Part shown: piece after piece, positions 3,546 to 32,000 of the stretch
Numbering within the stretch: position 1 is the stretch's first letter
Layout of the letters: each line of letters opens with the position of its first letter
DNA from: an uncultured bacterium
GTDB taxonomy: Bacteria; Margulisbacteria; WOR-1; CAVSGV01
Assembly (NCBI GenBank): GCA_963699255.1
Contig: OY969425.1
Span: 150,001 to 182,000, forward strand
Reading direction: 5' to 3'
DNA length: 32,000 nt
Translations under genes and position numbers: made by a program
Notes under the pieces: model-generated
Databases searched by the model: none
Told to the model about the DNA's origin: nothing
What the model saw: only the letters and a program-made list of their open reading frames with translations

Positions 3546-3560
3546 TGCTGATCCTTTCCT

Positions 3561-5305: not shown

Positions 5306-5326
5306 CTCGCGTCTCGCATCTCTTTT

Positions 5327-7657: not shown

Positions 7658-7793
7658 GACTCTTATCCATTATATCCTTTGGTGTTGCACCTCAATTTAG
7701 AACCCGGGGACTCTTTTTTCATTTCAATATTACCTTTTCCTGTGTTATAATTACTTGTCTAATTTCAGCAATTTTCCTATTGGAGAGCAAAAA

Positions 7794-12339: not shown

Positions 12340-12413
<74 letters not shown>

Positions 12414-12455: not shown

Positions 12456-12491
12456 TGGGCATATATACTTGAAATGCACGGTACAATACAT

Positions 12492-15330: not shown

Positions 15331-15331
15331 T

Positions 15332-18237: not shown

Positions 18238-18258
18238 CGGGCAGATCAAGGGGGGCAC

Positions 18259-18696
18259 ATGAAGATAGCTATAGGTTCTGATCATGGGGGATTTGTGTTG
18301 AAGGAAGAGATAAAGAGACATCTTTTGTCTCTCCGTCTCCCTTTCAAGGATTTCGGAACGTTCAATGAGGTATCCGTGGATTATCCGGATATCGGGAAAC
18401 GCGTTGCGAGATCCGTAGCCTCAAAAAAATTCAGGTTCGGGATACTCTTTTGCGGAACAGGCGAGGGTATGGCGATGGTAGCCAATAAAGTGAAAGGCAT
18501 CAGGGCCGCGGTCTGCCACAATGTCTATACCGCAAGGATGAGCAGGGCGCACAACGACGCGAACATTTTAAGCCTTGGCGGAAGGGTCCTGAAGAAGGCA
18601 ATGGCCGTAAAGATAGTGGATGTCTTTCTTAAAACGCCTTTTGAGGGCGGCAGGCACCTGAGGAGGGTGCGTAAAATCGAATTGAGGACGCGGTAG
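18259..18696 (+). CDS. rpiB: ribose-5-phosphate isomerase B
   Basis: 145 aa with RpiB/LacAB features IAIGSDHGG and FCGTGEGMAMVANK. Confidence 0.85.
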   Translation: MKIAIGSDHGGFVLKEEIKRHLLSLRLPFKDFGTFNEVSVDYPDIGKRVARSVASKKFRFGILFCGTGEGMAMVANKVKGIRAAVCHNVYTARMSRAHNDANILSLGGRVLKKAMAVKIVDVFLKTPFEGGRHLRRVRKIELRTR

Positions 18697-18811
18697 CGTA
18701 TGGCGAACCGTTTTGCGTTGAGCGTGACGCGTGACGATGGACACTTGACGATTCTCATGACGCAACCGCAGGACGGCATACACAATACGATAAAATAGGA
18801 GCATTTTAATA

Positions 18812-19909
18812 ATGAAAGCATTTATACTTGCTGCCGGGTATGGCAAGAGATTAGAGCCTCTTACGAAGGCGATACCCAAGCCGATGGTCCCCGTGGCTAA
18901 CAAGCCCATCATGCAGTATAACATCGAGCTTCTGAGGAAATACGGAATAAAGGACATTGCCGCGAATATCCACTATTTCCCGGAGCAGGTGGAGAATTAT
19001 CTGGGGGACGGCAGCTCCTTCGGCGTCAACCTGAAGTATTCCTACGAGGAGGAGCTTCTTGGCACCGCGGGCGGGGTGGGGCGCATGTCACGGCACTCCA
19101 GGATTGACGGGACTTTCATCGTGATAGCCTCCGACATTTTAACTGATGTCAATATAAGCAGGCTGATCGCGTACCATAAGAGGAAGAAAGCGGTCGCGAC
19201 CATAGCGCTGACGCCGGTGGAAGATGTGACGCAGTTCGGCGTTGTCATGCTTGATGAGAGCGACAGGATCACGGGATTCCATGAAAAGCCCTCAAGAGAA
19301 GAGGCAAAGAGCGATCTTGTGAATACCGGGGTTTATATCTTTGAGCCTGAGATCCTGGACATGATACCCGAAGATAAAGCATCGGACTTCGGCAGGGAGA
19401 TCTTCCCGCGGCTGGTTTCCGACAAGGCCCCTTTTTACGGGTACAGGATGATAGAGTACTGGAGCGATATCGGGGGGATAGAAAAGCTGAAATCCGCCAA
19501 CTCGGATATTCTTCAGGGAAGGGTAAGGGCGGAGGTTTCCGCGAGGCGGGTCGGCACATCCACCTGGCTTGGAAAGGGGACCCGGGTCGCCAGAAGCGCT
19601 AAATTTGACGGGACGATCATTTTGGGGGACAAGAGCGTCATCGGTGAGAATGTTGAAGTGTTCGGCAATGTTTCCGTGGGCGACAACTGCGTCATAGAGG
19701 ATGGAAGCATAATCTCAGATTCAGTTATCTGGTCTGATACCCGCGTCGGCAAAAGATCCAGGCTCAATAAATGTCTTATAGGGAGCTGGTGCCGACTGGA
19801 AGATGATGTGCGGATAGAGGAAGGATGCGTTATAAGCAACAGATGCCGGGTCAGGCAGGGCAAAAAACTTGAACATGACACGAAAGTTGAGCCCGATAGA
19901 ACTATATAG
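18812..19909 (+). CDS. sugar-1-phosphate nucleotidylyltransferase with a C-terminal left-handed beta-helix (ManC/GCD1-like)
   Basis: 365 aa with the N-terminal ILAAGYGKRLEPLT nucleotidyltransferase motif and hexapeptide-like repeats in the C-terminal ~110 aa. Substrate not assignable. Confidence 0.75.
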   Translation: MKAFILAAGYGKRLEPLTKAIPKPMVPVANKPIMQYNIELLRKYGIKDIAANIHYFPEQVENYLGDGSSFGVNLKYSYEEELLGTAGGVGRMSRHSRIDGTFIVIASDILTDVNISRLIAYHKRKKAVATIALTPVEDVTQFGVVMLDESDRITGFHEKPSREEAKSDLVNTGVYIFEPEILDMIPEDKASDFGREIFPRLVSDKAPFYGYRMIEYWSDIGGIEKLKSANSDILQGRVRAEVSARRVGTSTWLGKGTRVARSAKFDGTIILGDKSVIGENVEVFGNVSVGDNCVIEDGSIISDSVIWSDTRVGKRSRLNKCLIGSWCRLEDDVRIEEGCVISNRCRVRQGKKLEHDTKVEPDRTI

Positions 19910-19977
19910 CTTACGGCTGACTGCTCACAGCTAACGGCTAAAAGCCGTGTGCTGTAGCCGCAGGGCGTGCCGTAAGC
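19909..19977. terminator. nested hairpin element directly after the nucleotidyltransferase stop
   Basis: The outer stem GCTTACGGC (19909-19917) / GCCGTAAGC (19969-19977) encloses an inner hairpin ACGGCT-AAA-AGCCGT (~19934-19948). There is no U-tract. Confidence 0.35.
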
Positions 19978-19991
19978 TGTCAGCTAAATCT

Positions 19992-20026
19992 CATGCAAGT
20001 TTTTCGCAAGTTATCCCGATAATATG
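19992..20026 (+). promoter_or_regulatory. sigma-28-like promoter copy 1 (CATGCAAGTTTT-N13-CGATAATATG)
   Basis: The exact 12-mer is shared with the copies at 22250, 31176 and 31768, with identical 13-nt spacing. The box starts 126 nt upstream of the ATG at 20143. Confidence 0.55.
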
Positions 20027-20096
20027 TCCGTAGGAGAAGGTGTGTCAGCCCTGGAGTAATGGGGCTGCATATTTCAGGGTCAGCGATGAAGCGGCA

Positions 20097-20130
20097 TGAA
20101 ATCTTTTCTGGATTTTGACGATATATATAG
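20097..20130 (+). promoter_or_regulatory. degenerate sigma-28-like promoter (TGAAATCTT-N13-CGATATATATAG)
   Basis: The -10-like box matches the giant gene's copy exactly over 12 nt (CGATATATATAG), with the same spacing. The box starts 24 nt before ATG 20143. Confidence 0.4.
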
Positions 20131-20142
20131 AGAGGGAGAAAT

Positions 20143-20481
20143 ATGAGCATAGTTCCGATGAACCAAAGTACAAGTAAATTTGACCCGTTGTCACAAGCCG
20201 GGATTGATTATTTTAATGCCAGGAAAGCTCAGTCAAAAGCATTGCAGGACGGCATCGCCGGCGCGCTTGACATAGCGAGGATAGCTACACCGGGACCGAA
20301 TGTTAATACCAGGAACGATTACACTGGCAGCCAGGACCCGGCTACGGCTATAATCAGGTTTTTATATAAGTTGGGGGTTTTCGGAGGCGAGGATCTACCA
20401 GGCACGCAGGTTTATTCGACCGATGCGGGCAGTTCGCAAGGATATGCAACGCCAAAACCCAAAATTGATACTGAGAGATGA
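20143..20481 (+). CDS. hypothetical 112-aa protein
   Basis: ORF with RBS GGGAG. No signal peptide or TM segment, and no family recognised. Confidence 0.55.
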   Translation: MSIVPMNQSTSKFDPLSQAGIDYFNARKAQSKALQDGIAGALDIARIATPGPNVNTRNDYTGSQDPATAIIRFLYKLGVFGGEDLPGTQVYSTDAGSSQGYATPKPKIDTER

Positions 20482-20497
20482 ACTTAGTGGAGCATAA

Positions 20498-20749
20498 ATG
20501 ACGACCGACATAATAATAGACCAGATAAGGACCCATTGGTGGATCCTGCTTTTTATAATATGCATGGTTTCATATTTTGTTTATTCCTTTATTAAGGAAG
20601 CCATGGAGCTTAAGGCGGTAAAAGACAGGAAGAAGGCGCTTGAAAAGGAACTGGACGGCTTGAAGGCTCAGTACAATGAAGAGGCGAAAAAGCTTGAAGG
20701 TAAAATGGAAGAACGGAAAAAATTCTATCGAGGGGGAAAAAGGCAGTGA
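20498..20749 (+). CDS. small single-pass membrane protein with a Lys/Glu-rich coiled-coil tail
   Basis: 83 aa with RBS GTGGAG. A hydrophobic segment (HWWILLFIICMVSYFVYSFI) is followed by KEAMELKAVKDRKKALEKELDGLKAQYNEEAKKLEGKMEERKK. Its stop overlaps the next gene's GTG (GTGA). Confidence 0.55.
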   Translation: MTTDIIIDQIRTHWWILLFIICMVSYFVYSFIKEAMELKAVKDRKKALEKELDGLKAQYNEEAKKLEGKMEERKKFYRGGKRQ

Positions 20750-22146
20750 GCGGCGAACTTCAACCGGTAGTGAGCAATAATCCTAACGGGACCAATTTGG
20801 GGAATACCGCCATTCCTGATAACCAATTTGATCCGAATGATCTTGTGGATTTTGCCAATCTGAAAAAGCAAATAGACGGCAATAAGGACGGAATTAGCCT
20901 TACAACTCTGAAGACCTTTCAAAGCCTGGATAAAGTGACACAAAAGTTGAAGGAGGAATTTAAAGGGCTTGGTATTGGCGAGAGTGAAATTCATGCATGG
21001 CTTGCAAAAATGATCACGAAGCAGCTGGCTGATCCGGGATCGTATCCGCTGAATCCCTCTGATTTCAATATACTTAAATGGGTTAAGATAGGGCGGAGGG
21101 AGGTTCGCGCGCTGGTAAATTCGGTACGTAACGACCTCAGCTTTTTCCAGAAAATAACCAGTACTCTTTCCGTTCATAAGGTGACCCGCGCCGCGTTCCA
21201 TGAATTATTCGTCATGAACGAAAATGATACCGCTCCCATTGACGGCTCAAAAGACCTGTTCCATGAATTATTCCACAGGGAGACCGTTGACCTTGATCAC
21301 TTCAAGACCACACTTGAAGATGAGGTGTTCCCTTTTGCCCAATCCGTATCTCCCCGCAACGCGCTCTCAAGGACGCTGCGGCTTCTGTCCGCAAGAAGGT
21401 TCATCATGATCGATTCAAACCACATGTCGGATTGCGTTAAAACAGCGTTGTATAATCTGGCACTGTCAAGGATCGAGAAAGAATTTCCTCCCGCACAGGA
21501 CAAAGATAAGCCGGATAACGCGAAGACCAGGAAAGACCTGCTGAAAGAGATCGCCGACTATCTTAACGGAAAGAAAGACGGTGAAAACAACGATATTTTC
21601 GATGTTTTGGGGATCACGCAGAGGCCTCCGGAGAAATTACCCCCGAAGAAACTTGATCCGAACTGCAGGGCGCAGGAACTGCATGATAAATATTTTAGCG
21701 GAGTGGAAGGATCGGCCCTGGTCGAGTCTATTGGTTATGCGTATTTCACGGGTCTCGCATCGGGCAAAACCGGCGTAAAAGATGTTTTTTCTTCGGCCGG
21801 GCTGAACACCATATGGGGGAGGCTTGTTCGTGATCTTGAACTGAAGGGCGGGAGCGAAATGGAATTCAACAGGAAGATCAAGAACCATTACGAAAAACAG
21901 GGAGAAGCTATGGATCATATGGTCACATCGCTCCTTGACGACTACGGATTGATGGATAACCCCGCTGACGGCGAAACGGATCCAGTCCAGGCGTGGAGCG
22001 GCAACGAGAAAATAATTGATATCGGCCCTTCCCACGAGACCCCGTTCTATCCGTGGGTCAACTGGGTAGTAAAGCATCCTGATGAGGTCGGCAAAAAGGA
22101 TATTGCGACGCCGCCCAAACCGACGGAGCAAGGGATACCTGAATAA
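20746..22146 (+). CDS. hypothetical 466-aa protein with a single HExxH motif
   Basis: Long ORF with a GTG start coupled to the upstream stop. HELFH lies at aa 173-177 (nt 21262-21276). No signal peptide and no family recognised. Confidence 0.6.
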   Translation: MSGELQPVVSNNPNGTNLGNTAIPDNQFDPNDLVDFANLKKQIDGNKDGISLTTLKTFQSLDKVTQKLKEEFKGLGIGESEIHAWLAKMITKQLADPGSYPLNPSDFNILKWVKIGRREVRALVNSVRNDLSFFQKITSTLSVHKVTRAAFHELFVMNENDTAPIDGSKDLFHELFHRETVDLDHFKTTLEDEVFPFAQSVSPRNALSRTLRLLSARRFIMIDSNHMSDCVKTALYNLALSRIEKEFPPAQDKDKPDNAKTRKDLLKEIADYLNGKKDGENNDIFDVLGITQRPPEKLPPKKLDPNCRAQELHDKYFSGVEGSALVESIGYAYFTGLASGKTGVKDVFSSAGLNTIWGRLVRDLELKGGSEMEFNRKIKNHYEKQGEAMDHMVTSLLDDYGLMDNPADGETDPVQAWSGNEKIIDIGPSHETPFYPWVNWVVKHPDEVGKKDIATPPKPTEQGIPE

Positions 22147-22162
22147 CAGTTAGCCGCAAGTA

Positions 22163-22192
22163 AACCGGTATAACTTCTCCGGGCGTTTTTTT
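22163..22192 (+). terminator. weak stem followed by a T7 run after the 466-aa gene
   Basis: CCGG...CCGG short stem, then GCGTTTTTTT (T-run 22186-22192). The stem is poor. Confidence 0.3.
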
Positions 22193-22249
22193 GAGTATTA
22201 CTTCTTACGCATTTTAAGCCTTTTTTAGCCCTATTTTTCTTATAAAACC

Positions 22250-22286
22250 CATGCAAGTTTTCCCCTGTTCTCCCCGATATATATAG
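22250..22286 (+). promoter_or_regulatory. sigma-28-like promoter copy 2 (CATGCAAGTTTT-N13-CGATATATATAG) of the giant gene
   Basis: Exact 12-mer with 13-nt spacing. The box starts 29 nt before ATG 22304, and RBS GGGGAG lies between them. Confidence 0.6.
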
Positions 22287-22303
22287 TGTAAAGGGGAGAC
22301 AAA

Positions 22304-25300
22304 ATGCCGGAAATAAACATACAACAAGTTACCGATATTCCTCAAACCGACGCCACCAGCGATGTTGCTGGCGGCGCTGATGTTTCCGCGGCCTATATAG
22401 CTTCCGACGTACAGACCGCCCCAGATGTGAACGCGTCCATCGGCATTGACAGCGTAGCGGTCTCGTCCGGCGTTTCCACATCTCAGGTTGGCGTTGGCGG
22501 CGCTGTTGAGCAGGAAGAATCCTCAAATTACATCCAGAGCGATGTTGAGACGGCTTCACAATCCGGTCAGCTCGAATATGACATGAACTCCCTTGCGAAA
22601 ATAAATGACTCCTACAAATACATCGATCCAACCGCTTCCGGGATACAGTCGATACTGGCCAATCTATATGCGAACGGGACCATAAACAGCGGCATGTCCG
22701 AGGAAGAAGTCGTTCTTGCCATTAACACATACGTTTTCAGCAATTACTCGTACATAGCTGATACGGGTGATACCTGGAATTCCGTTTCGCAGACCATAAA
22801 GAACGGGGGAGGCGACTGCGAGGACTTCGCGAACCTGGCAGCCAGCCTGATGACAGCCGCATTATTGGACAGAGGACTTAGCCAGGAAGAAATAAACAAA
22901 AAGATCGATTGTGTTGTTGTTGCCGATCCCAACACCGGGTTGGGCCACGTTTATGTGCAGTATACCGGCGATGATGGCTCCATAAAATATCTGGACCCTG
23001 TTTCTGCAAGGGTAACGACTTCAATAGACAGCTCCAAGGTCGTTCTCTTCAGCTACAGCGATGAGAACGTGGATGTCATTGATGAAAACTTCGATTTCTC
23101 AAGGCTTGACACGGCCAGTTACACGATTCCGGCGGACACCGCCACCTATATCCAGGTCCTCCCTGGTGAGTTCCAGAATTACTGGGAGTCGCTGCTGGGC
23201 ATGGAGGACTCCGCGGCCCACGACAATGCCATCGGAATTTACCAGTCGTTACAGGACCTTATTAACGCAGTTAATGCGAAATACGGCAGCTGGGACAACG
23301 GCGTGACCACGACGGCTGATCTGGATACGATCAATGCTTTTCTTGCTAAACTGGATAGCAATTATATTCAGGACTATGATACGGTAGTTAAGCCGTTCCA
23401 GGACCAGTATGAGGCGATATTGACCAAGCTCGGCGTGGACACATCTCCATATAACCCGGACGCAACCGCATATTCTACCGCAATGCTCAATTATTTTACT
23501 ACCATGAATACATATATATTCGCTTATTGCTGGCACACAACAACTTATAAAGAATGGAGCCAGAGCGGCAAAACAATGAACGGCGTATCGGATGACCTTA
23601 TAGCTATCGAATATTTGAAGAACGGCATTTCGACCCTTGAAGATTTTAAAGCCAAGCATCATGACCAGATAATAGAGACCGCGGCTGACCCTACAAAGGG
23701 AACGGCCGAGGTGGATTGGTCAAACGATTATATATATGACAACATTTACTTTAAAAATCCCAACGGCGGAAATGTATGCACCGTGAGGCAGGGTTTAGCG
23801 GCCATTCAGGCGTATGTTTCGTATGTTGACGCGACCAAAACATGGAACTTCATGTCCCTTGCATATCCCGGAGAAGCCCGCGTGGCCAAATATTGCGGGT
23901 ATGCGGACAAATACCACACCAGCTTTAAAACGACCAATGATTATCTGGCATCCATCACCAGCTTCCTGGAACAGGCGGAGTACGGTGTGGGGGTGCTGGA
24001 CAAGGATCTGGAGGAGTTGGACAGCGCGATAGATGTAATAAATGCCGATGCGACCGTTACCGACGACCAGACCAATTATAATTCCGCTGATGCAAAGTTC
24101 AACAACTGTACCGATGCTGCGGCAAATGATGCTGTAAACCTTTATTGGAATGGCGAAGCAGATTATCTCACTTCAGGAAACCCCGACAACAGTCTGTTAC
24201 AGGTCACTGATGAGAAGACGAGAAATGCAAACCTGGAAGCTCTTTATAAACAGGCCAGCTCTTATGACCAGGGCCAGATGTATGCGGGTTCAAACCAGGC
24301 GGATGTTGAAGCGGCCCTGGAATATTATGTTGAATTCAAGACTGCAGACAAGGCTCTGACGGAGGCGAAAACAACACAGGCCACCTTAAGGGCTGACTTC
24401 AAGGCGATGTACAAGAACGCGGATGGCAGTGAAATGTCCGACGCGGACCTTGACAATGTTCTGAACGACTATCAATCCGAATATATGAGCAAAGATACCG
24501 ACCCCTCAAGCACCACTTATGGCTACTGGGAGATCAATCAGGATGCATCGCTGTTCACCGAAAAGATAAAAGAAGCGAGCATGTTGAAAGGGTACCTGAC
24601 CGGAATATCTCTTATATATGAGGCAAGGAGGGACCTGAGAAAACTGGTCGAGGAAGAACTGGAGGGGGAAGGCGACGACTACAAGGCGATGGAGATAAAC
24701 AAGCTGTTCATGAAAAAGGTGAACAAGCTGACGGAATATATCCAGCAGACGATCGTTGATGTGTTGTCGGCAATAAACTCCCTTGACCAGGCCAAGTATG
24801 ATCAGGATGTAAGCGACATAAACACAAAATATGATAAAAAGGCGGAAGAAATAAAGAAGAACGACGCGCTCAAGTGGTATCAGTTCTGCGAGGACGACAA
24901 CACGCAAGAGGATCTCCTTAAAAATGACGATGCGAGGTATGGCGAAATCAACGCTGCGGATGATAAGTTCAAGGCGGTAAAAGAAAAACAACTGAACATC
25001 GTCAAGCACCTGCTGTCGGAGACCGGAATGACGGTTTCGGGGACAACGGGAGATGAAATATGGGCTTCCATAAATAAACAGATTAACACTTCGCTGGACA
25101 ATATGGATAATTACAGCCGCGCCACGCTTAACACGAGCGATGACTCCCAATACCGCGAAGTGGACAGAAATCTGGTAAGTTCTGAGAGGGCAAGCCTGCT
25201 GGGCGTCTTCGGTATTCAAAGGATGATACTTATAGCAAGGCAGGCGGGAAGCGACATGAGGAACCTTGTTCATCAGGAGATGACGGGGATCGGCGGCAGG

Positions 25301-28300
25301 CAGTCAAGAACGGATGTTGCTGCAGATATGGTTTCGGCCGACTCCAATATGGTGATGACCTGGTTCGATGAAGCGGTGAGCGACATAGAAACAATAACGA
25401 ACCTCGGCAACCAGATCAGGTATAACGAGATACAGATAGAGAAGAACCAAAAGCTGATCGAGAAGATAGATTCGCAGAAATCGAAAAGATTATGGGGGCA
25501 TATTTTTGAGGCACTTGCCTTTGTGGCGGCGGTCGTCGCGATATGGGTCCCTATAGTCGCGGTCGTCGCGATCGCGTTTGGCGTTGTTTCGGCTGTTTTG
25601 AAGGCGTCCGCAAATAAAGCGGTGGCGGATGAGAAAGCAAAACTGGAAAAAGACTATAGCTACCAGGTGATAAAGCCGACGGATCCGGTCTTTGAAAAGA
25701 AGCTCAATGCGATGAGCGGGTTAACGGACGAACAAAAGAAAGAGATACTGCAGAATTATGATCCGAACTCGACGACATTTAAGGGTAATTTGGATAAGGT
25801 CAGCGGCTTAAGCGCGGAGCAGAAGGATGAAATATTGAACGCGGCTGATCCGAGCCGGGCAGCCTATGAGAAGACCATTAATGCCGACACTTCCTTAACT
25901 GAAAAACAAAAAGAAGCTCTAATTAACGCGTATGACCCGAATGAAGAGATCTTTAAAAAGAACCTGGCGAATCTCAACGCGTCCACCTCGGCCCCGTGGT
26001 ATGAGTTCTGGAAAAGCGACACGCCGGGATTGGGGTTAAGCGACTCCCAGATCACCATGATAACCGACGCGTATGAAGGGAATACCTTCATGCTCAGTAT
26101 TGATTCTAGTACTATATTAACCGAAGCTCAAAAGAAAGAGATAAGGAATGCATATGATAAGGACAGGGTGACTTTTGAATCGAATTTAGACAGCCTTGGT
26201 TTAAGCGATGACCAGATAAGCGCGGTAATGAAGGCATATGATGAGCAGACTGACAATTCGGCGAACGATAAGAATTATTCAGATGATAATATCATCAATA
26301 CGGCGTTGAATTCAGATAACTCGACGCAGGACATACTTTGGAACATGAACGATGCCAACTATCTGTCCTTTATGAATGACGGGCACGCAGGCTCATACGC
26401 GGGATCATCTGCGTTTAACACGGTCAAGTTCGCGAGCACCCTGGAGAACATAAAGGCCAATGACCTGATCGTCATGGTCGCCGAATCTTGCAGGGAGACG
26501 ATGGCCGAGATGAGGAACCTGGTGCATGAGGAAATGACCTCTATCGGGGGAAGGTCGCCGTCAAGCATGGTAACGGCCACGATGGAAGCGGCCAGAGGTC
26601 AGGAAGCTTTCATCGCGAATGAAATGTACATGAAGCTGTGGGACATGAACACCTCGAACAATCAAAGGTTCGAGAGGGACCAGAAGCTGAGGCTCTATCA
26701 GCAAATGGCAGATGAGGCGGATGTGACCTTTGGTCTGAGCTTTATCCCTATTGTCGGAGGGCCGGTGGGGGATTTTTATTCGAACCTGAGCGGTATGAAG
26801 GATCAGAGGAACCAGCTGGAGGAGACAAGCAATGAAAAATTTGATGCAAATCCCGACCTGGAAGAAGCGGATCTTAACGCTTTAGTCGAGGATGGTCTGA
26901 TAAATACGGGGAATGACACAAAAGGGGTTAATTATGAGAAAGTATCCAATGCTCGAACCGCGGTCGCAAAGGAATTCATAAAGGAAAGCGTTGAAGCGAC
27001 GATAAAGAAGACCCTGCATGAGCTAAGAAGCATCGCTCACATGGAAATGACGAATATCCAGAGCAGCACGGGCACGGATTTTGCCAGCCAGGCTAATATC
27101 GTGAACTTCACGTCGGCACTGGAGACCATTTCACTTGTCACCCAATACCTTACCCAGAAGGCGGAGATAATGAACAGGGTCACCGAGGCGAACCAGAGCA
27201 TCTCAAAGCTGAACAAGCAGATCACAAACTATGAGATCGGGGGAGGGATAGCCCTGGCGGTCGCGATCGTGGTATCTGTTTTCATGCCCGGCGGGTTTGA
27301 CTCTGTTCTGGCCGCTCTTGATACCCTTCAACTTGCTTCCTCCGTTGGCAGTTTTGTTCTCGGGGTATTCAGCACTATAAACGCGTGGATCGAAGCGAAA
27401 TTCGCAGCTCAGCTGGCAAAGGACGACATGGGCGATGTCGCCGAATACCTGGAGATACAGGACATGAACAATGAGAACATCGATTCCACCCAGAACAGGC
27501 TGGAGGCTCTTGAACAGAACAGCATAAATGAAATAAACGCGAGCCTGCTTCAGGACCTTGGCTCCGGATACATAGGAGTGAACAAGGCGCTTTCGTCAGA
27601 GTTTAAGACCTTAATAGAACAGCTTTACAGGGCAGAGAGAAGTCAATCGGAGATCCAGCAGACCCTTGAGGCGTTAAGGAATACCGTGCACGAGGCAATG
27701 ACCGGAATATCCGGCGTGTCCAGCAACGCGACCATGTCTATTCTTGACATGAAGGAAAAGGCAATAAAGGCGAAGATAGACGACATGTTCAGCAAGCTTG
27801 AAGAGGTGGCGACCAGGTGGAACCAGATCTCGGATGCCCAGAGAGCGGCGGAAAAAGCCAGAATGCAGGCATGGACGACCACTCTCAGCACCATTATACA
27901 GGGCATCATAATTGCGATATCGCTTTATAGCGCGTTCGGTAAGGAGCCGGCGGCGAAAGATAAAGTTGATGCGGCGCAAAATGACGTGGATAGTGCACAG
28001 ACCCCTGATGAATTAGATGCGGCGGAAGGTGAGCTTCGTGATGCCCAAGCCGACTATCAAGCCCTTCAAAGCAGGGTCGCGCTATACACCAATGTTTGCC
28101 TCCCCGCGGCGGAGATCCTGATCAAGCTGGCTATGGCCTTTATAGAAAAAGATGAAATGCAAGGCGTTCAAAAGACAAGGGAAGAGGAAGTATCGAATGC
28201 GGGGGTCACGAAGGTTACGAAGGACGCAGGCGAGACGGTGAAAGAGGGCGTTGCGGGAGCCGGCCTTAATGGGTTTGCGGCGAGGGGCCAGGCGGTAGCC

Positions 28301-30166
28301 GGACAGCGTGAGGTGGACAATCAGGCAGCCACATACGCCCTGAAGAGCGACGAGATCGAGGATGATTTTAGGACGAATCTATACAACGTTGAAATGGACA
28401 CCGTGGACTATGCTAAGGGGCTTACGAAGGAGCTGGCAAGAATGTGGAAGAACAGGAGAACAGAGGCTTACCAGAACACGCAGAGCTTCGCGAAGCAATT
28501 GGAGTCGATGAAATTGAGCAAGGCTCAGATGGACGCGCTTAACCAGGCATTTAAGAGCGACAGCGCTGAAGAATTCTTGAAGCAGCTGGCGTCAATAAAC
28601 GGGTTGAGCGATGCCCAGGTGAACGCGATAGAGCAAGCTTATGATAATTGCAAGCATGTTTCCGCCCTTGGCTCCTTTAAGGAAAGAATGGATGCATCAG
28701 CTGCGGTAGGGAAATTGGATCCGGCACAGAAGAAAGCGGTAATTGATGCGGCTAATAGCAGCACAAGCGTTAAAGACTTTGCGAAGAAATTGAACGCGAT
28801 ACAGGGATTAAGCTCTACTCAGAAGGACGCGTTAATTAACGCATTCGATCCGAAAATGAAGACCTTTGCGGACAAGATCGACGCGTCGCTGACGCTGAAT
28901 AATGATGATAAAAAGAGCGCGGTAAAGAATGCCTATGACCCGAACGTTAAGACCTGTATCAATAATGTATTAGCAATATCATCCCTGACCGATGCTGAAA
29001 AACTGACGGCGCTGCAGGCCATTGATCCGAAGATAAGTTCTTTTATAGACAATATGGGTCCGGCAGTGACCGATACCCAGAAGCTGTCCATAATGAAACA
29101 GTTCGATCCGAACGAGGTGGCTTTTAAGAAGAACGTTGATTCAATGGATGATATAACTCCGGTCCAAAAGAAGGATGTCATGAAGGCATTTCACATGGCA
29201 GTGATAGATAACAAAGACATAAAAAATCTGACCGATGCGGATAAGATAAAATCGATACAGGGCTTAAATCCGGCAATGAAGCATAAGATGGTCAAAGCTG
29301 TATATGACGCCCAGCATAAGGTCAGTCAGGCGAAAGATCTGATCAACCAAGCGAAGCAGCTGCCTTCCATCAATCAGGTGACGGGCGCCGGCACACAGGC
29401 GCAGTCCCAGGCGATCTCGACGCCGCCGGTGGCCCCGCAGGGAAAACAGTCAGCGAACACCTCCAATACACAGGCTATGCTGGATAAGCTCCTGAGCAGT
29501 TTTGATAAGAACATGCAGGAATTAAATGGTTTACAATCTCAGGTTGATAAGCTTAATGCCCAGACGACGGAAAAGCTGGACCCGAAAGAATTGTTGAAAA
29601 TACTTCAGCAGCAGTTGAAGGATGCGGGCGCGAAGATCGCCAACGAAAAGAAATTAATCGACACCATGAAGCAGGAGGTTGCAAAGACCCAGACAGCTCT
29701 TGCCACACAGGAACAGAACGTGCAAGAGGAAAGAGATAAACTTGTTAAAGCTATAAAGAAAGTGGATGATCAGATAAAAAAACTTGGTGAACTGGCCGCA
29801 AGATCCCCCGAGAATAAGAAGGTCATTGAAAATCAGTTGAACCAGTTGAATGACCAGCTTGAAGAAATGATGACATTATATAAATCGACGCAAGAAATGT
29901 ACGGTATTGCCCTGGGGACGGAAAAAGCCCTGGAGAATGAAATAAAGGATAAGGAAGGCAAGGTGGAGATACTTAAAGCGGAAGTTGTCAAGATCAAGGC
30001 GGATATAAACAATATACAGAAAGAGATCCTGGCGAAGAAAGCCGGCGGGGACAATAAGAATACGGCCAGCATCAATATCCAGACGCCGAAGATCACTTCA
30101 GAGACGCCAATGTTCAGCACAGGCGCTCCAACAGCCCCCAAAAAACAATACGCCTATACAGCATAG
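22304..30166 (+). CDS. giant (2620 aa) multi-module membrane-associated coiled-coil protein with an N-terminal transglutaminase-like cysteine-peptidase core; function unknown
   Basis: 7.86 kb frame with no stop, and a good RBS and promoter motif. Predicted features come from reading the translation. Hydrophobic segments lie at aa 1067-1099, 1645-1665, 1677-1696 and 1857-1879. Internal repeats and a C-terminal heptad-rich region (~aa 2390-2580) are also present. Confidence 0.85.
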   Translation: MPEINIQQVTDIPQTDATSDVAGGADVSAAYIASDVQTAPDVNASIGIDSVAVSSGVSTSQVGVGGAVEQEESSNYIQSDVETASQSGQLEYDMNSLAKINDSYKYIDPTASGIQSILANLYANGTINSGMSEEEVVLAINTYVFSNYSYIADTGDTWNSVSQTIKNGGGDCEDFANLAASLMTAALLDRGLSQEEINKKIDCVVVADPNTGLGHVYVQYTGDDGSIKYLDPVSARVTTSIDSSKVVLFSYSDENVDVIDENFDFSRLDTASYTIPADTATYIQVLPGEFQNYWESLLGMEDSAAHDNAIGIYQSLQDLINAVNAKYGSWDNGVTTTADLDTINAFLAKLDSNYIQDYDTVVKPFQDQYEAILTKLGVDTSPYNPDATAYSTAMLNYFTTMNTYIFAYCWHTTTYKEWSQSGKTMNGVSDDLIAIEYLKNGISTLEDFKAKHHDQIIETAADPTKGTAEVDWSNDYIYDNIYFKNPNGGNVCTVRQGLAAIQAYVSYVDATKTWNFMSLAYPGEARVAKYCGYADKYHTSFKTTNDYLASITSFLEQAEYGVGVLDKDLEELDSAIDVINADATVTDDQTNYNSADAKFNNCTDAAANDAVNLYWNGEADYLTSGNPDNSLLQVTDEKTRNANLEALYKQASSYDQGQMYAGSNQADVEAALEYYVEFKTADKALTEAKTTQATLRADFKAMYKNADGSEMSDADLDNVLNDYQSEYMSKDTDPSSTTYGYWEINQDASLFTEKIKEASMLKGYLTGISLIYEARRDLRKLVEEELEGEGDDYKAMEINKLFMKKVNKLTEYIQQTIVDVLSAINSLDQAKYDQDVSDINTKYDKKAEEIKKNDALKWYQFCEDDNTQEDLLKNDDARYGEINAADDKFKAVKEKQLNIVKHLLSETGMTVSGTTGDEIWASINKQINTSLDNMDNYSRATLNTSDDSQYREVDRNLVSSERASLLGVFGIQRMILIARQAGSDMRNLVHQEMTGIGGRQSRTDVAADMVSADSNMVMTWFDEAVSDIETITNLGNQIRYNEIQIEKNQKLIEKIDSQKSKRLWGHIFEALAFVAAVVAIWVPIVAVVAIAFGVVSAVLKASANKAVADEKAKLEKDYSYQVIKPTDPVFEKKLNAMSGLTDEQKKEILQNYDPNSTTFKGNLDKVSGLSAEQKDEILNAADPSRAAYEKTINADTSLTEKQKEALINAYDPNEEIFKKNLANLNASTSAPWYEFWKSDTPGLGLSDSQITMITDAYEGNTFMLSIDSSTILTEAQKKEIRNAYDKDRVTFESNLDSLGLSDDQISAVMKAYDEQTDNSANDKNYSDDNIINTALNSDNSTQDILWNMNDANYLSFMNDGHAGSYAGSSAFNTVKFASTLENIKANDLIVMVAESCRETMAEMRNLVHEEMTSIGGRSPSSMVTATMEAARGQEAFIANEMYMKLWDMNTSNNQRFERDQKLRLYQQMADEADVTFGLSFIPIVGGPVGDFYSNLSGMKDQRNQLEETSNEKFDANPDLEEADLNALVEDGLINTGNDTKGVNYEKVSNARTAVAKEFIKESVEATIKKTLHELRSIAHMEMTNIQSSTGTDFASQANIVNFTSALETISLVTQYLTQKAEIMNRVTEANQSISKLNKQITNYEIGGGIALAVAIVVSVFMPGGFDSVLAALDTLQLASSVGSFVLGVFSTINAWIEAKFAAQLAKDDMGDVAEYLEIQDMNNENIDSTQNRLEALEQNSINEINASLLQDLGSGYIGVNKALSSEFKTLIEQLYRAERSQSEIQQTLEALRNTVHEAMTGISGVSSNATMSILDMKEKAIKAKIDDMFSKLEEVATRWNQISDAQRAAEKARMQAWTTTLSTIIQGIIIAISLYSAFGKEPAAKDKVDAAQNDVDSAQTPDELDAAEGELRDAQADYQALQSRVALYTNVCLPAAEILIKLAMAFIEKDEMQGVQKTREEEVSNAGVTKVTKDAGETVKEGVAGAGLNGFAARGQAVAGQREVDNQAATYALKSDEIEDDFRTNLYNVEMDTVDYAKGLTKELARMWKNRRTEAYQNTQSFAKQLESMKLSKAQMDALNQAFKSDSAEEFLKQLASINGLSDAQVNAIEQAYDNCKHVSALGSFKERMDASAAVGKLDPAQKKAVIDAANSSTSVKDFAKKLNAIQGLSSTQKDALINAFDPKMKTFADKIDASLTLNNDDKKSAVKNAYDPNVKTCINNVLAISSLTDAEKLTALQAIDPKISSFIDNMGPAVTDTQKLSIMKQFDPNEVAFKKNVDSMDDITPVQKKDVMKAFHMAVIDNKDIKNLTDADKIKSIQGLNPAMKHKMVKAVYDAQHKVSQAKDLINQAKQLPSINQVTGAGTQAQSQAISTPPVAPQGKQSANTSNTQAMLDKLLSSFDKNMQELNGLQSQVDKLNAQTTEKLDPKELLKILQQQLKDAGAKIANEKKLIDTMKQEVAKTQTALATQEQNVQEERDKLVKAIKKVDDQIKKLGELAARSPENKKVIENQLNQLNDQLEEMMTLYKSTQEMYGIALGTEKALENEIKDKEGKVEILKAEVVKIKADINNIQKEILAKKAGGDNKNTASINIQTPKITSETPMFSTGAPTAPKKQYAYTA
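22630..23030 (+). other. transglutaminase-like / BTLCP-like Cys-His-Asp core within the giant ORF
   Basis: DTWNSVSQTIKNGGGDCEDFANLAASL (Cys172, nt 22817-22819), GLGHVYVQY (His215, nt 22946-22948) and KYLDPV (Asp231, nt 22994-22996). Order and spacing fit the transglutaminase-like protease fold. Confidence 0.55.
25693..26250 (+). repeat. protein-level repeat array A (~6 units of ~28-30 aa, consensus gLSxxQKxxIxNAYDPNxxxFxxNL)
   Basis: Example units: MSGLTDEQKKEILQNYDPNSTTFKGNLDKV / SGLSAEQKDEILNAADPSRAAYEKTINAD / TSLTEKQKEALINAYDPNEEIFKKNLANL / TILTEAQKKEIRNAYDKDRVTFESNLDS. Confidence 0.8.
28487..29320 (+). repeat. protein-level repeat array B (~9 units of the same repeat family as array A)
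   Basis: Example units: QGLSSTQKDALINAFDPKMKTFADKIDAS / LTLNNDDKKSAVKNAYDPNVKTCINNVLAI / SSLTDAEKLTALQAIDPKISSFIDNMGPA / VTDTQKLSIMKQFDPNEVAFKKNVDSM. Confidence 0.8.
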
Positions 30167-30321
30167 GCCTGCAACCGCGAACATCAGCATTGTCTATCTC
30201 TTTAGGACCTGCAACAGAATCACGGCAATCGTCGGTATCTAGTGTCGGCTCCACATGACAGATTGCCGATGAACCATACATATAATATGATCTCTTTTTG
30301 TGTTAAAATCCTGGATCAGCA

Positions 30322-31020
30322 ATGGGCAGAGTATTGACATATATTTATTCGGTGATCTTTTGGGCATATCTTCTGCTCTTCTTCACACTGGTGCCGCTCT
30401 TCGCCCTGCCGTTCTCCTTGATATTCGGGCTGAAGCGGTCTTTCAGGACTTTTTTCAAGATATTCGTCAAATTCGGGCTGTTCATTTTAGGCTGTTTTCC
30501 GTCCGTTGAGGGGCTTGAGAACATGCCCCGGGGCAAAAATGTCATCCTTGTATCAAATCACCCCAGCTTCATGGACCCGTTCCTTCTTAACGCGGCCCTG
30601 CCCGGGTTCTACAATTTCATAGTTTCAGCCAGATTGCTTGATAATCCTTATTCAATGGTGGCAATAAGGGGCGCAGGCCTTGTGGTGAAGCGCTACGGAC
30701 ATTCCCTGTATGGTTCAAGCGCGATGATCAGGACCGTGAAAGCCATAAATGCCGGCGACTCGTTCATTCTGTTCCCGTCCGAGCGCGCCATTCTAGGAGG
30801 CCGCATCGATAAGATAAACCCCGGCTTTTATAAGGTGATTGAGGATGCGAGTGCAGTCATCCTGCCTGTGTTCATCAAGCAGGAAATAAGGTTCACATTT
30901 ATACGGAAGCCGTTCAAGGCAAAAGTGGTCATCGGAAAGCCGCTGGATAAACATAATGTACTATATGTAAGAGACAACGCCATTAAACAGGCAGTAGAAT
31001 TTCTAGGGCAACAAGTGTAA
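30322..31020 (+). CDS. lysophospholipid/1-acylglycerol-3-phosphate acyltransferase family (LPLAT, PlsC-like)
   Basis: 232 aa. The hydrophobic N-terminus is followed by the HX4D motif NHPSFMD. FPSER stands in the place of the usual FPEGTR block. Confidence 0.65.
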   Translation: MGRVLTYIYSVIFWAYLLLFFTLVPLFALPFSLIFGLKRSFRTFFKIFVKFGLFILGCFPSVEGLENMPRGKNVILVSNHPSFMDPFLLNAALPGFYNFIVSARLLDNPYSMVAIRGAGLVVKRYGHSLYGSSAMIRTVKAINAGDSFILFPSERAILGGRIDKINPGFYKVIEDASAVILPVFIKQEIRFTFIRKPFKAKVVIGKPLDKHNVLYVRDNAIKQAVEFLGQQV

Positions 31021-31067
31021 CCCGCCTGTGTCTAAAACCCCTTCTGTCCCTCGTTAATGCTCGGGAC

Positions 31068-31125
31068 ATCTCCCCCTTAGTAAGGGGGAGATACAGAGGG
31101 GGTTATTAAGCCCTCTTATTCTTAT
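31068..31125 (+). terminator. two consecutive hairpins followed by T-rich sequence after the acyltransferase gene
   Basis: ATCTCCCCCTTA-G-TAAGGGGGAGAT (31068-31092, 12-bp arms), then AGAGGG-N10-CCCTCT (31095-31116), then tattcttatttat. Confidence 0.45.
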
Positions 31126-31175
31126 TTATCCGCCTTATGCCGTTTGCTGAAAGCCTTATTCTACAAGCTAAATCC

Positions 31176-31212
31176 CATGCAAGTTTTACCCCTCTTCTTA
31201 CGAATAATACAG
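31176..31212 (+). promoter_or_regulatory. sigma-28-like promoter copy 3 (CATGCAAGTTTT-N13-CGAATAATACAG)
   Basis: Exact 12-mer with 13-nt spacing. The box starts 27 nt before ATG 31228. Confidence 0.55.
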
Positions 31213-31227
31213 TGTAGGGGAGCTAAG

Positions 31228-31428
31228 ATGCCACAAAACGAAACTAATGGTGTACAACAGTCTCAAAATAAGCAACAGGAAAATCCTGCTGCGAAGAAAG
31301 TTATGGCAAATCAACCAAACAGAATGGCGAAGCCATCCGATGAGAGGTCGGATCAGCCGGACCTGAACATTACCGCACGGGTGGAACTTGAAGGCATGAA
31401 GCCGCCCATTGCCAACTGTATTGTCTGA
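31228..31428 (+). CDS. hypothetical 66-aa Gln/Asn/Pro-rich (probably disordered) protein
   Basis: ATG 31228 is preceded by GGGGAG, and I prefer it to the tracked TTG start at 31144 because the promoter motif lies at 31176. Sequence: MPQNETNGVQQSQNKQQENPAAKK... Confidence 0.45.
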   Translation: MPQNETNGVQQSQNKQQENPAAKKVMANQPNRMAKPSDERSDQPDLNITARVELEGMKPPIANCIV

Positions 31429-31442
31429 GGAGCACAAAAGCA

Positions 31443-31763
31443 ATGAACGCGATAACCGGCATAAATAAACAGATAAACCCCAACCAGGGTGTTGGGGTAA
31501 ATCCGACAACACAGCCCCAGAAGAGCGAGGGCAAAACGAATAATTCAGGCATAAATTTTAACAATGTATTTGAGATCGTGAGAAGGAGCCTTGACGGGGT
31601 TATGGTGGTGGCGGAGAACAACAGGACGGGCGGCGCTGATTTCAGGAAGGAAAAGCTGGAGATAGAGGAAAAGAGGAAGTTCAAGACCGACCTTGAAGAA
31701 GCCCAGGAGATACTGAACCAGATAGCAAAGGTCATGGAAAAGCACGGCAAAGCTGTAAAGTAA
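31443..31763 (+). CDS. hypothetical 106-aa protein (polar N-terminal half, charged helical C-terminal half)
   Basis: ORF with RBS GAGGAG, 14 nt after the previous stop. No family recognised. Confidence 0.5.
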   Translation: MNAITGINKQINPNQGVGVNPTTQPQKSEGKTNNSGINFNNVFEIVRRSLDGVMVVAENNRTGGADFRKEKLEIEEKRKFKTDLEEAQEILNQIAKVMEKHGKAVK

Positions 31764-31767
31764 AATC

Positions 31768-31804
31768 GCATGCAAGTTTTGTGCCGGTCGTTACGATAGA
31801 TATA
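31768..31804 (+). promoter_or_regulatory. sigma-28-like promoter copy 4 (CATGCAAGTTTT-N13-CGATAGATATAG)
   Basis: Exact 12-mer with 13-nt spacing. The box starts 51 nt before ATG 31844. Confidence 0.55.
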
Positions 31805-31843
31805 GTGGAAGACAAAATTATAAAAATAAGGAGGTGAAATAAT

Positions 31844-32000
31844 ATGAGTTACGGAGCAGAATACGCGACCAAGAAAACGGGGGAAAATATATTAGACAAT
31901 GCTCTTACAGTGGCAGGTGACGGAGTCGATGACATCGCGCACGTTTTGGCCGATGTTGAAGCGAACGGCGGTAAGATCAATAACGGCAACGGCCAGTCAG
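31844..32000 (+). CDS. hypothetical protein, 5' part only (runs off the window)
   Basis: My own translation: a strong RBS AAGGAGGTG sits 7 nt upstream of the ATG, followed by MSYGAEYATKKTGENILDNALTVAGDGVDDIAHVLADVEANGGKINNGNGQS with no stop before the window end. It is not in the supplied track. Confidence 0.5.
   Translation, partial: MSYGAEYATKKTGENILDNALTVAGDGVDDIAHVLADVEANGGKINNGNGQS

Follow-up and report, generated by a model that had tools for sequence, protein, structure and literature searches.

A promoter-marked island of conserved orphan genes built around a giant membrane protein in Margulisiibacteriota

Sigma factors of the sigma-28 family (group 3) direct regulons such as those of FliA in Escherichia coli and Pseudomonas, SigD in Bacillus, WhiG in Streptomyces and Rubrobacter, sigma-28 in Chlamydia and SigF in cyanobacteria, and the chlamydial late genes are one case of a non-flagellar re-use of this specificity. 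Promoters of the same type have been re-used for sporulation and for type IV pili (PMC8325347). In the present study, we examined a 32,000-nucleotide (nt) stretch of DNA from an uncultured bacterium of the Margulisbacteria (lineage WOR-1; contig OY969425.1, positions 150,001 to 182,000), here called the window, in which positions 19992 to 32000 hold an island of orphan genes. The analysis firmly supports a real and conserved set of orphan genes that has a phylum-specific promoter and is built around a giant membrane protein of 2620 amino acids (aa) with a LapG-like protease domain. Gene coordinates refer to the forward strand of the window, and related contigs or loci and protein relatives carry L and P numbers, respectively. 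Like the promoters of sigma-28-family regulons, those of the island are bipartite and rigidly spaced, with AAGTTT in the -35 element and CGATAA/T in the -10 element, and they stand before dispersed genes of an apparently late or surface-related kind. They differ in a -35 element extended to CATGCAAGTTTT, in a spacer with one additional base and in targets among which no flagellar, pilus or sporulation genes were seen.

As in the LapG/LapA system, the island couples a giant protein with a cysteine protease of the transglutaminase-like type, and the N-terminal domain of the island giant has a predicted LapG fold with a similarly spaced Cys-His-Asp triad. LapG, however, is a small stand-alone enzyme of the periplasm that has a signal peptide, is controlled by LapD and c-di-GMP and cuts an RTX adhesin secreted by a type 1 system, whereas the protease of the island is fused to a signal-less protein without RTX or adhesin repeats. 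Neither genes for LapD, LapB, LapC, LapE or ABC, MFP and TolC components nor RTX repeats were found in the window or related loci. Flagellar late operons (flaG-fliD-fliS-fliT, flagellin and GmaR-type enzymes) resemble the island in promoter class, in signal-less products and in the sizes and order of the genes of a core situated downstream of the window. The likeness extends to a family 2 glycosyltransferase (GT2) with tetratricopeptide (TPR) repeats, encoded within this core in four lineages, and to the d115 family of proteins, which combines a variable body with a conserved terminal helix. The island differs from these operons in that no similarity of sequence, profile or fold was detected and no basal-body or export genes were seen; furthermore, the core family f982 is conserved in its C-terminal two thirds and not at both termini.

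Chlamydial Inc proteins and type III translocators have paired hydrophobic hairpins in helical or coiled-coil chains without a Sec signal. The giant is similar in its long helical regions, which are broken by two close hydrophobic helices, and in the absence of a Sec signal, but it has four hairpin modules per chain, and its charges fit the inner membrane of the producer; no homology to these proteins was detected and no type III system is known here. Giant genes of Omnitrophota are reported to encode multi-thousand-residue, largely unannotated proteins of an uncultured lineage (bioRxiv 10.1101/2023.11.21.568195). The island giant is likewise huge, largely unannotated and from an uncultured lineage. 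Compared with the Omnitrophota giants, it belongs to another phylum and family and is distinguished by 'VH.EMTG' modules with transmembrane (TM) hairpins, a dedicated promoter class and fixed partner genes. Overall, the gene set is far from every described system while its regulatory logic is familiar, and a search of the available literature gave no account of the cluster, the giant family or the promoter motif.

The promoter motif and its distribution

An exact 12-mer, CATGCAAGTTTT, was present in four copies in the window (at 19992, 22250, 31176 and 31769), and the bipartite pattern GCAAGTTT-N14-CGAW was matched four times compared with an expectation of 0.04. All four copies were intergenic, on the + strand and 20 to 120 nt upstream of the 112-aa, giant, 66-aa and 115-aa genes; all were within the island and none occurred in 20 kb of housekeeping genes. 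Alignment of these copies gave AAA.C.CATGCAAGTTTT-N13-CGA as the common sequence. Promoter P1 (19992 to 20024) consists of GCAAGTTT at 19995-20002, 14 nt and CGATAAT from 20017, and is predicted to serve the 112-, 83- and 466-aa genes. P2 (22250 to 22282; GCAAGTTT at 22253-22260, 14 nt, CGATATAT) is the predicted promoter of the giant gene, P3 (31176 to 31208; GCAAGTTT at 31179-31186, 14 nt, CGAATAAT) that of the 66- and 106-aa genes, and P4 (31769 to 31801; GCAAGTTT at 31772-31779, 14 nt, CGATAGAT) precedes the 115-aa gene. Two of the predicted transcription units are preceded by a strong hairpin on the + strand. A long nested hairpin at 19906-19980 (-43 kcal/mol), which terminates the upstream housekeeping unit of rpiB and the NTP-transferase, abuts P1, and a terminator-like hairpin with a T-rich tail at 31096-31127, 3' of an acyltransferase gene, lies before P3. 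In this arrangement, the island consists of short predicted transcription units, each headed by the bipartite promoter.

The motif was retained at orthologous sites in contigs with giant homologues (L002 to L007). P1 occupies the same site in L002, L003 and L005, and P3 is conserved in L002 and L003. P2 is conserved upstream of the giant in L002, L003, L005 and L019 and before giant-family open reading frames (ORFs) in L088 and L091. A fifth copy was found upstream of a 102-aa gene in L001, a contig that overlaps the end of the island in the window. Over 205 distinct instances from the fetched loci of Margulisiibacteriota type, the consensus was aat..CATGCAAGTTTT...C...tta..aCGATAatataagTG, or, in short form, CATGCAAGTTTT-N13-CGATA(a/t). 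The distance from GCAAGTTT to CGA was 14 nt in 231 matches, and distances of 12, 13, 15 or 16 nt were never observed.

For comparison, the 'flagellar' consensus has TAAA at -35 and GCCGATAA at -10 (PMC8325347), and the fliC promoter of Pseudomonas aeruginosa reads TCTAAAG...GCCGATAA (PMC12784957). The -10 element of the island matches the sigma-28 sequence GCCGATAA, the core CGATA being near-invariant in the 205 instances and preceded by c/a-C; the copies in the window read CCCGATAA, CCCGATAT, TACGAATA and TACGATAG. In the -35 element, AAGTTT is invariant and the upstream TA is changed to GC, giving agreement at 6 of the 8 positions of TAAAGTTT, and the block is extended to CATGCAAGTTTT. The spacer is rigid at 17 nt, compared to 16 nt (from the G of TAAAG to CGATAA) in the fliC promoters of E. 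coli and P. aeruginosa. The promoter was considered to be sigma-28/FliA/WhiG-family-like because the -10 element matches and the -35 element shares AAGTTT, though the spacer is one base longer, and on this consensus the assignment is reasonably supported. Co-regulation of the island gene set by this promoter is also reasonably supported. The description of the island as marked by sigma-28-like promoters, given in an earlier note made from the sequence of the window alone, was thus borne out by the fourfold occurrence of the motif and by the consensus match. Folding confirmed the nested hairpin that the note had placed before the island (z -4.6; 0 of 200 shuffles folded as well).

In order to examine the spread of the motif, one genome per species (185,579 species) was scanned with CATGCAAGTTTY-N13-CGAWWDWWW, and at least 117 stretches were recovered. 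Among the matches listed, 70 were named Candidatus Margulisiibacteriota, Saganbacteria, WOR-1 or Termititenax and 25 were from metagenome-assembled genomes (MAGs) labelled 'bacterium', many of which carried island families; the remaining 22, from other phyla, were at about the level expected by chance according to a rough estimate. These results indicated that the motif is a signature of the phylum Margulisiibacteriota and that the window derives from a member of it. The closest relatives of the window in the searches were Saganbacteria-like. In two loci of a MAG labelled Candidatus Omnitrophota (DATJPS01; L023 and L105), the promoter stands before polar proteins without signal peptides; one of these proteins belongs to a promoter-marked family common to Margulisiibacteriota loci, and the MAG may be misclassified or chimeric.

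Downstream genes were surveyed by taking the best ORF starting within 300 nt of each Margulisiibacteriota-type match, a simple heuristic for which some calls will be wrong. Among the matches listed, this gave 103 promoter-proximal ORFs in 75 families. Pfam matches were to Transglut_core (2), UPF0164 (2) and, once each, Beta_helix, NosD, SH3_3, EF-hand, DUF4116 and FlgD_ig, and no flagellin, hook-associated, FlgM, motor or chemotaxis family was matched by any of the 103. Sec-like N-termini were detected in 15 of these proteins; the other 88 start with polar residues, N, P, G, S and V being over-represented and E, D and L under-represented in the first 25 positions. Five of the 15, ~360 to 395 aa in length (L021, L026, L040, L073 and L122), form a family with signal peptides, the look of an outer-membrane beta-barrel and the same promoter; two of the five weakly matched UPF0164, and the family motif is 'GVGARPLGMGKA...'.

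The giant protein and its membrane partner

The giant gene (22304 to 30166, + strand) belongs to a family that is so far confined to Margulisiibacteriota. Only six giant-like clusters were found in a collection of 5.8e9 sequences, and an HMMER search with residues 1 to 1200 against 1.84e9 representatives gave 112 matches at E<=1e-3 and 22 at E<=1e-30. The named relatives with the full architecture were from Margulisiibacteriota, and one hit, matching in the protease domain only, was labelled Thermoproteota. The protein starts with a peptide (22304 to 22423, aa 1-40) that lacks a Sec signal and is conserved in the alignment consensus as M..(I/V)(N/Q)Q(I/V).N...D.TSD.AG(G/A)A.V.P.YI.SDV. A LapG/BTLCP-like domain of the transglutaminase-fold cysteine proteases follows (22586 to 23113, aa ~95-270; PF01841, E 1e-6), with an intact triad of C172 (GGDCED), H215 (GHVYV) and D231 (YLDP). 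The GGDCED cysteine motif was strictly conserved in 23 of 25 relatives, and the His and Asp were present in most.

AlphaFold2 modelling of residues 85 to 770 from eight sequences gave predicted local distance difference test scores (pLDDT) of 80 to 92 in the protease domain and was confident there only. In a Foldseek search with this domain, the best PDB matches were LapG structures of Legionella (4fgo, 4fgq and 4u65; E 5e-5, target TM-score 0.55-0.58), followed by a putative cysteine protease of Cytophaga and then by PNGase. Modelling thus assigns to the N-terminal domain a LapG-like transglutaminase/papain-like fold with a Cys-His-Asp triad. The conserved peptide ends in ...SD(V/I/A)AG(G/A)A(S/A/D)V, ~70 residues before the protease, and resembles double-glycine or LapG 'AAG'-type cleavage sites; from this pattern, self-processing of the giant at AG(G/A)A is conceivable. 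In d115 proteins, '(V/I)AG' motifs resembling this one are found around residues 22-28. Other giants, of 3.6 to 6.7 thousand residues (P0026-P0067), also carry a comparable transglutaminase-like domain in N-terminal position, with a GGDCEDL(A/S) motif in those checked; one of them is labelled as a Thermoproteota archaeon, and its contig may be mis-binned.

Five 'R..VH.EMTG..G' modules are spread over 24635 to 27703 (starting at aa 778, 985, 1403, 1574 and 1791), four of which precede a hydrophobic hairpin by ~65-75 aa. The module is repeated in the relatives P0018, P0021 and P0026 and therefore represents a signature of the giant family; it was also repeated in the giants of L138, L141 and L149. 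It was detectable by motif only: when the giant was compared with itself by BLAST, no internal repeats were returned at E 1e-3, and a query that joined the C-terminus of f982 to residues 880-1135 of the giant, made to collect module homologues, returned relatives of f982 only. A hydropathy scan placed the strongest TM hairpin at 25487 to 25618 (aa 1062-1105), with K/R-rich sequence on both flanks by reading, and weaker hairpins at 27227-27373, 27869-27943 and 28088-28147. Repeats of ~29 aa with the pattern 'LSxxQKxxLxxAYDPN' form two blocks (25676 to 26338 and 28391-29308), and the C-terminal region (29486 to 30073, aa ~2395-2590) reads as a long, heptad-like coiled coil.

The conserved companion of the giant is an 83-aa single-pass membrane protein (20498 to 20749, + strand), in which a signal-anchor TM segment (~aa 14-31) precedes a K/R- and K/E-rich coiled-coil tail. 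Since the hairpin flanks of the giant and this tail are rich in K and R, the positive-inside rule suggests that most of the mass of both proteins faces the cytoplasm. Homologues of the 83-aa protein adjoin or neighbour the giant in L002, L003, L019, L088 and L091, and the corresponding position in L005 is taken by an unrelated 84-aa TM/coiled-coil protein.

Gene content, synteny and the downstream core

In L002 to L007, the same upstream block (aroB-tyrS-ispF-pdxJ::SLH-rpiB-NTP-transferase) is followed by an orphan island of ~17-20 kb that ends at His_Phos_1 and PEPCK genes. More distant loci retain the arrangement, with rpiB-NTP-transferase-[120 aa]-[82 aa]-[465 aa]-giant in the marine single-cell genome L091 and an analogous [112][63, TM][393][1284] set in L151. 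The island extends ~15-18 kb beyond the end of the window, and the part within the window makes up the initial third of a gene system so far found only in Margulisiibacteriota. Six core families lie downstream of the window, namely d115, d102, f447, f164, f131 and f982. Including 38 further loci from protein-guided metagenome retrieval, the order giant, small proteins, [d115], d102, f447, f164, f131, f982 was observed in no fewer than seven lineages, as a rule with PEPCK/hisAH next to f982, and the overall order is [~115 aa][80-aa TM/coiled-coil][~466 aa][giant], small polar proteins and the six-family core. The giants upstream of the core in L133, L134, L138, L141 and L149 are true homologues with VH.EMTG modules.

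Among the core families, f447 has a very basic tail and f131 is basic with a predicted coiled coil, the tails of both being K/R/A/P-rich. The f982 family is conserved over its C-terminal ~400 residues and comprises 44 clusters, all 'hypothetical', of which all the named ones are from Margulisiibacteriota; one member (P0117) sits on the window's own contig of 1.77 Mb. The length of f982 varies from 530 to ~1000 aa by tandem duplication of an internal unit of ~85-100 aa, '...YSSAYAQ...SPEAKEKLDEAQ..L..KGFSEKDI...' (L003:22053-25001 compared with L005:22148-23869). In the d115 family, which reaches Termititenax (L074), the body varies and a C-terminal helix, ...DDLMQKISTxVQxAxQLLxxxNNxxKTASRxLxQG, is conserved. 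Profiles of d115 and f982 gave no match in profile or sequence searches and no relative in the PDB.

A GT2 glycosyltransferase with TPR repeats (363-368 aa; PF00535, E 1e-21 to 1e-28) is encoded between f131 and f982 in L145, L149, L148 and L159, where its gene abuts or overlaps the stop codon of f131, and the cluster is flanked by CgeB-like (Glyco_trans_1_2 plus DUF3880), GT4 and TPR-GT9 genes. TPR glycosyltransferases within operons for structural proteins are typical of protein glycosylation, as with GmaR-type flagellin enzymes and with CgeB/CgeD in maturation of the spore crust. By this analogy, the presence of the TPR-glycosyltransferase inside the core operon suggests that a subunit may be glycosylated before assembly, and, combined with the d115 pattern, it tends to favour a structure that is exposed. 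The rpiB gene and a GMPPB-like sugar-nucleotide transferase gene (18259-19909) are directly upstream of the island in the window and also in L002, L003, L005, L091 and L159; the pair may supply activated sugar to the cluster glycosyltransferases or may reflect plain synteny. Genes of the 23S_rRNA_IVP family (PF05635, Avd-like four-helix bundle) occur between promoter-marked units at L001:1437-1796, L003:18652-19083, L005:16387-16887 and L005:25532-25948, and there is no copy of the motif between the one in L001 and the 115-aa gene upstream of it.

Within the window, the first gene of the island encodes a polar 112-aa orphan (20143 to 20481, + strand), which is fast evolving (38% identity to L002); small proteins occupy the corresponding position in L091 (120 aa) and L151 (112 aa). 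The gene for the 466-aa orphan (20746 to 22146, + strand) has a GTG start and a 4-nt GTGA overlap with the stop codon of the 83-aa gene, and homologues of its product were found in L002 (42-46%), L019 (23%) and L091 (hhalign probability 99.7%, E 4e-25). No match to this protein was detected in Pfam or the PDB. A role as a zincin protease was rejected for it: the HExxH motif recorded in the earlier note is present in the window as FHELFH, but the site reads FHDLFH (HDxxH) in L002 and is lost by deletion from L019 and L091. The acyltransferase gene (30322 to 31020, + strand, 232 aa) is of the LPLAT/PlsC type (PF01553, E 1.2e-15, above the curated cut-off, with matches to NCBIfam acyltransferase models) and carries an HX4D motif read as 'NHPSFMD'. 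It is 75% identical and intact in L002, fragmented in L005 and absent from L003, and is preceded by a sigma-70-like match (TTGCCG-17-TATGAT, 30263-30291) and by no sigma-28-like motif. As it has this match of its own and is intact only in the window and L002, it was judged to be a passenger outside the promoter-marked set. Co-occurrence around giant homologues, proposed in the earlier note as a check, was thus observed for the 83-aa, 466-aa and small polar genes across distant members of one phylum and failed for the acyltransferase.

The end of the window carries a polar 66-aa orphan (31228 to 31428), a 106-aa orphan termed w106 (31443 to 31763) and the first 52 codons of a d115 protein (31845 to 32000), all on the + strand. 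ATG 31228 is the likely start of the 66-aa gene because P3 falls within the longer ORF that begins with TTG. The 106-aa protein is the best conserved of the small proteins in the window, with identities of 83% (L002), 64% (L003) and 50% (L005). The full 115 aa of the d115 protein were read from L001, a 3.3-kb contig from a public run whose 66- and 106-aa proteins are 100% identical to those of the window and in which the 115-aa gene is followed by a 23S_rRNA_IVP gene, the 102-aa gene and a gene of >340 aa.

The ORF table and translations reproduced the gene list of the earlier note (112, 83, 466 and 2620 aa, acyltransferase, 66 and 106 aa and a run-off ORF), and its statements on orphan status and on signal peptides were upheld. 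The orphans gave no match in Pfam, NCBIfam, PHROGs, PADLOC or PDB sequences, the sole exception being the Transglut_core match of the giant, so that only its protease domain could be assigned. No Sec-type N-terminus was recognised among the island proteins on reading their N-terminal sequences, the formal hydropathy scan having been applied to the giant only; the acyltransferase has N-terminal TM segments. Identity to L002 was 38-59% for island orphans compared with 79-94% for housekeeping neighbours. The G+C content of the island (0.44-0.51, compared with 0.39-0.53) showed no anomaly and no change across the boundary.

Upstream of the island, 12474-19909 holds aroK, aroB, a class I W/Y-type aminoacyl-tRNA synthetase gene (called tyrS), ispF, pdxJ, rpiB and the sugar-nucleotide transferase gene, and further housekeeping genes lie on the opposite strand at 1213-6741. 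The pdxJ gene (15844-18237) is a 797-aa ORF in which the enzyme is fused to an SLH domain (aa 349-391) and ~400 residues of no known kind; the fusion is also a single ORF in L002, L003 and L005 (57-80% identity) and is an odd pairing of a cytoplasmic vitamin B6 enzyme with a cell-wall anchoring domain. An Rfam scan detected tRNA only, the gene being at 12340-12413 between panB and aroK. A 267-aa ORF on the + strand (6854-7657) had no Pfam match. A leuA/cimA-like gene (~7790-9355) is frameshifted near 7940, with the N-terminal part (16 protein letters not shown, then ...EGGWPAS) in one frame and the rest, from 8159, in another, owing either to a sequencing error or to decay into a pseudogene.

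Interpretation of the island

As the block is real, has its own conserved promoter and recurs across the phylum, the island looks like an undescribed cell-envelope apparatus of Margulisiibacteriota under a sigma-28-type promoter. An envelope or surface structure is our best guess, to which we give about an even chance of being right. In such an apparatus, an alternative group 3 sigma factor would turn on the whole gene set together, and the products would assemble into a supramolecular envelope structure anchored in the membrane. The giant would act as the membrane platform, inserted through three or four helical hairpins with its bulk at the cytoplasmic face, and the 83-aa protein would be its membrane partner. 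The LapG-like protease may process the conserved N-terminal peptide of the giant itself or partner proteins. At least some of the small subunits would reach the cell exterior by a Sec-independent route, in view of the d115 pattern and the TPR-glycosyltransferase, and candidate roles for the structure are attachment, a surface filament, motility or a coat. A narrower form of this proposal is a Sec-independent surface apparatus (a filament, attachment organelle or motility device) made of proteins without detectable relatives elsewhere on the giant as platform. By analogy, this would follow the logic of flagellar late operons, with a sigma-28-type promoter, signal-less subunits, small chaperone-like partners and a TPR-glycosyltransferase in the operon; we consider this form tentative and somewhat unlikely. 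Sec-independent export of island products is possible: the polar N-termini and the operon-embedded TPR-glycosyltransferase fit it, whereas the positive-inside placement of the giant and the 83-aa protein points the other way.

Several observations weigh against an envelope apparatus. Of the proteins encoded downstream of the motif, 85% (88/103) lack a signal peptide and no secretion machinery was seen, and therefore the structure could be entirely cytoplasmic. No component besides the protease domain has a recognisable fold. The region of the giant after the protease gave a helical AlphaFold model of low confidence, and AlphaFold2 modelling of f982 from 44 sequences gave an all-helical model (pLDDT 68) for which Foldseek found no PDB match (best E 0.08, TM-score <0.2). 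Gene content varies, the 112- and 466-aa genes being missing from L003 and replaced in L005 by unrelated genes of 93 and 697 aa. Motif-bearing genes are also scattered elsewhere in these genomes, so that adjacency in the island may be partly historical, and the survey of downstream genes rests on heuristic first-ORF calls. Assignment of the promoter to its class is by consensus only, the spacer exceeds the canonical length by one base, and tblastn of ~1 Mb of fetched loci detected no FliA-like sigma factor gene.

A purely intracellular programme of development or of the cytoskeleton, in which a sigma-28-family factor activates coiled-coil scaffolds and basic proteins that reorganise membrane and nucleoid in a late or resting stage without any export, is an unlikely alternative. 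Factors of this family act in such programmes, as WhiG does in Streptomyces and sigma-28 in Chlamydia. It is favoured by the scarcity of signal peptides and secretion genes, by the largely helical nature of the proteins (from the f982 and non-protease giant models, the rest judged from sequence), by the very basic tails of f447 and f131, by the cytoplasmic bulk of the giant and 83-aa protein under the positive-inside rule and by the re-use of sigma-28-family regulons for non-flagellar programmes (PMC8325347). The same promoter, however, heads outer-membrane barrels with signal peptides and beta-helix or adhesin-like proteins, and these barrels, the hypervariable body and conserved terminus of d115, the fast divergence and the TPR-glycosyltransferase in the operon are more typical of exposed structures. 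Export through a flagellar-type (type III) gate, with the island as a late motility-phase sigma-28 regulon, had been suggested in the earlier note and was judged quite improbable; in effect, the island would then be a strongly diverged or substituted version of the flagellar late genes. The order and sizes of the core genes (~100, 450-760, ~165 and ~130 aa, [GT2-TPR], ~540 aa) recall a flagellar late operon, which we take to correspond to flaG-fliD-fliS-fliT, a flagellin glycosyltransferase and flagellin; the promoter class and the polar, signal-less N-termini are in agreement, and flagellins and FlgV have been reported in some Margulisbacteria (PMC7018530, PMC11607428). In the sampled genomes, though, the motif is not attached to recognisable flagellar genes. 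None of the 103 downstream ORFs was flagellar, and tblastn with 21 flagellar, motor and chemotaxis proteins of E. coli plus FliA against ~1 Mb around the promoters matched only a CheY-like domain and, weakly, a CheA domain, so that the flagellar, export-gate and motor genes sought found no match there. Comparison of the d102, f447, f164, f131, f982, d115 and w106 profiles with E. coli FliC, FliD, FliS, FliT, FliE, FliK, FliJ, FliH and FliA by hhalign gave probabilities of <5% throughout, single-sequence templates limiting sensitivity; the f982 model had no flagellin-like match, and the promoter combined with a flagellin-type 'MxINxN' start had no match in the metagenome collection. Flagellar homology of the island was thus rejected at the available sensitivity, and the charge flanks, which would put both the giant and the 83-aa protein into the membrane of the producer itself, also argue against such export.

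It is rather improbable that no single system exists and that unrelated, fast-evolving, lineage-specific genes share a broad 'surface and stress' promoter and stand together for historical reasons. The distribution of promoter-bearing genes over many contigs of the same genomes (~75 families), the variable content and the interspersed passenger acyltransferase and IVP genes agree with this idea; the flanking housekeeping genes are syntenic too, and therefore part of the conservation of the island reflects general collinearity of the genomes. Set against this are the persistence of the giant and the core order in lineages in which f982 is only 28-34% identical and the flanks differ, the translational coupling shown by the 83/466 overlap and by f131 abutting the glycosyltransferase, and the retention of the 83- and 466-aa partners in the marine single-cell genome. 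A degraded prophage, mobile island or anti-phage defence island was largely refuted and is extremely improbable. A cluster of orphan genes with interspersed Avd-like IVP genes downstream, and a helical giant whose hydrophobic segments give a superficial likeness to tape-measure proteins, might suggest such an origin, but ten island proteins had no PHROGs or PADLOC match below E 0.007, there is no shift in G+C content, no integrase or transposase was found, the tRNA gene at 12340 is not adjacent, and deeply separated lineages keep the block at one chromosomal position, between rpiB/NTP-transferase and PEPCK/hisAH.

Margulisiibacteriota, a sister lineage of Cyanobacteria, include free-living forms of sediments and the sea, ectosymbionts of termite-gut spirochaetes and an intracellular symbiont of Trichoplax. 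For this phylum, the motif CATGCAAGTTTT-N13-CGATA provides a specific sequence handle on ~75 mostly uncharacterised protein families that are presumed to be co-regulated, and it appears to be another case of flagellar-class promoter specificity re-used for a non-flagellar programme. Should the products of the island work as one machine, this would add a new type of envelope apparatus to those of bacteria. In enrichment cultures, the promoter, the giant family and the six-family core could serve as defined targets for metatranscriptomics, metaproteomics and cryo-electron tomography.

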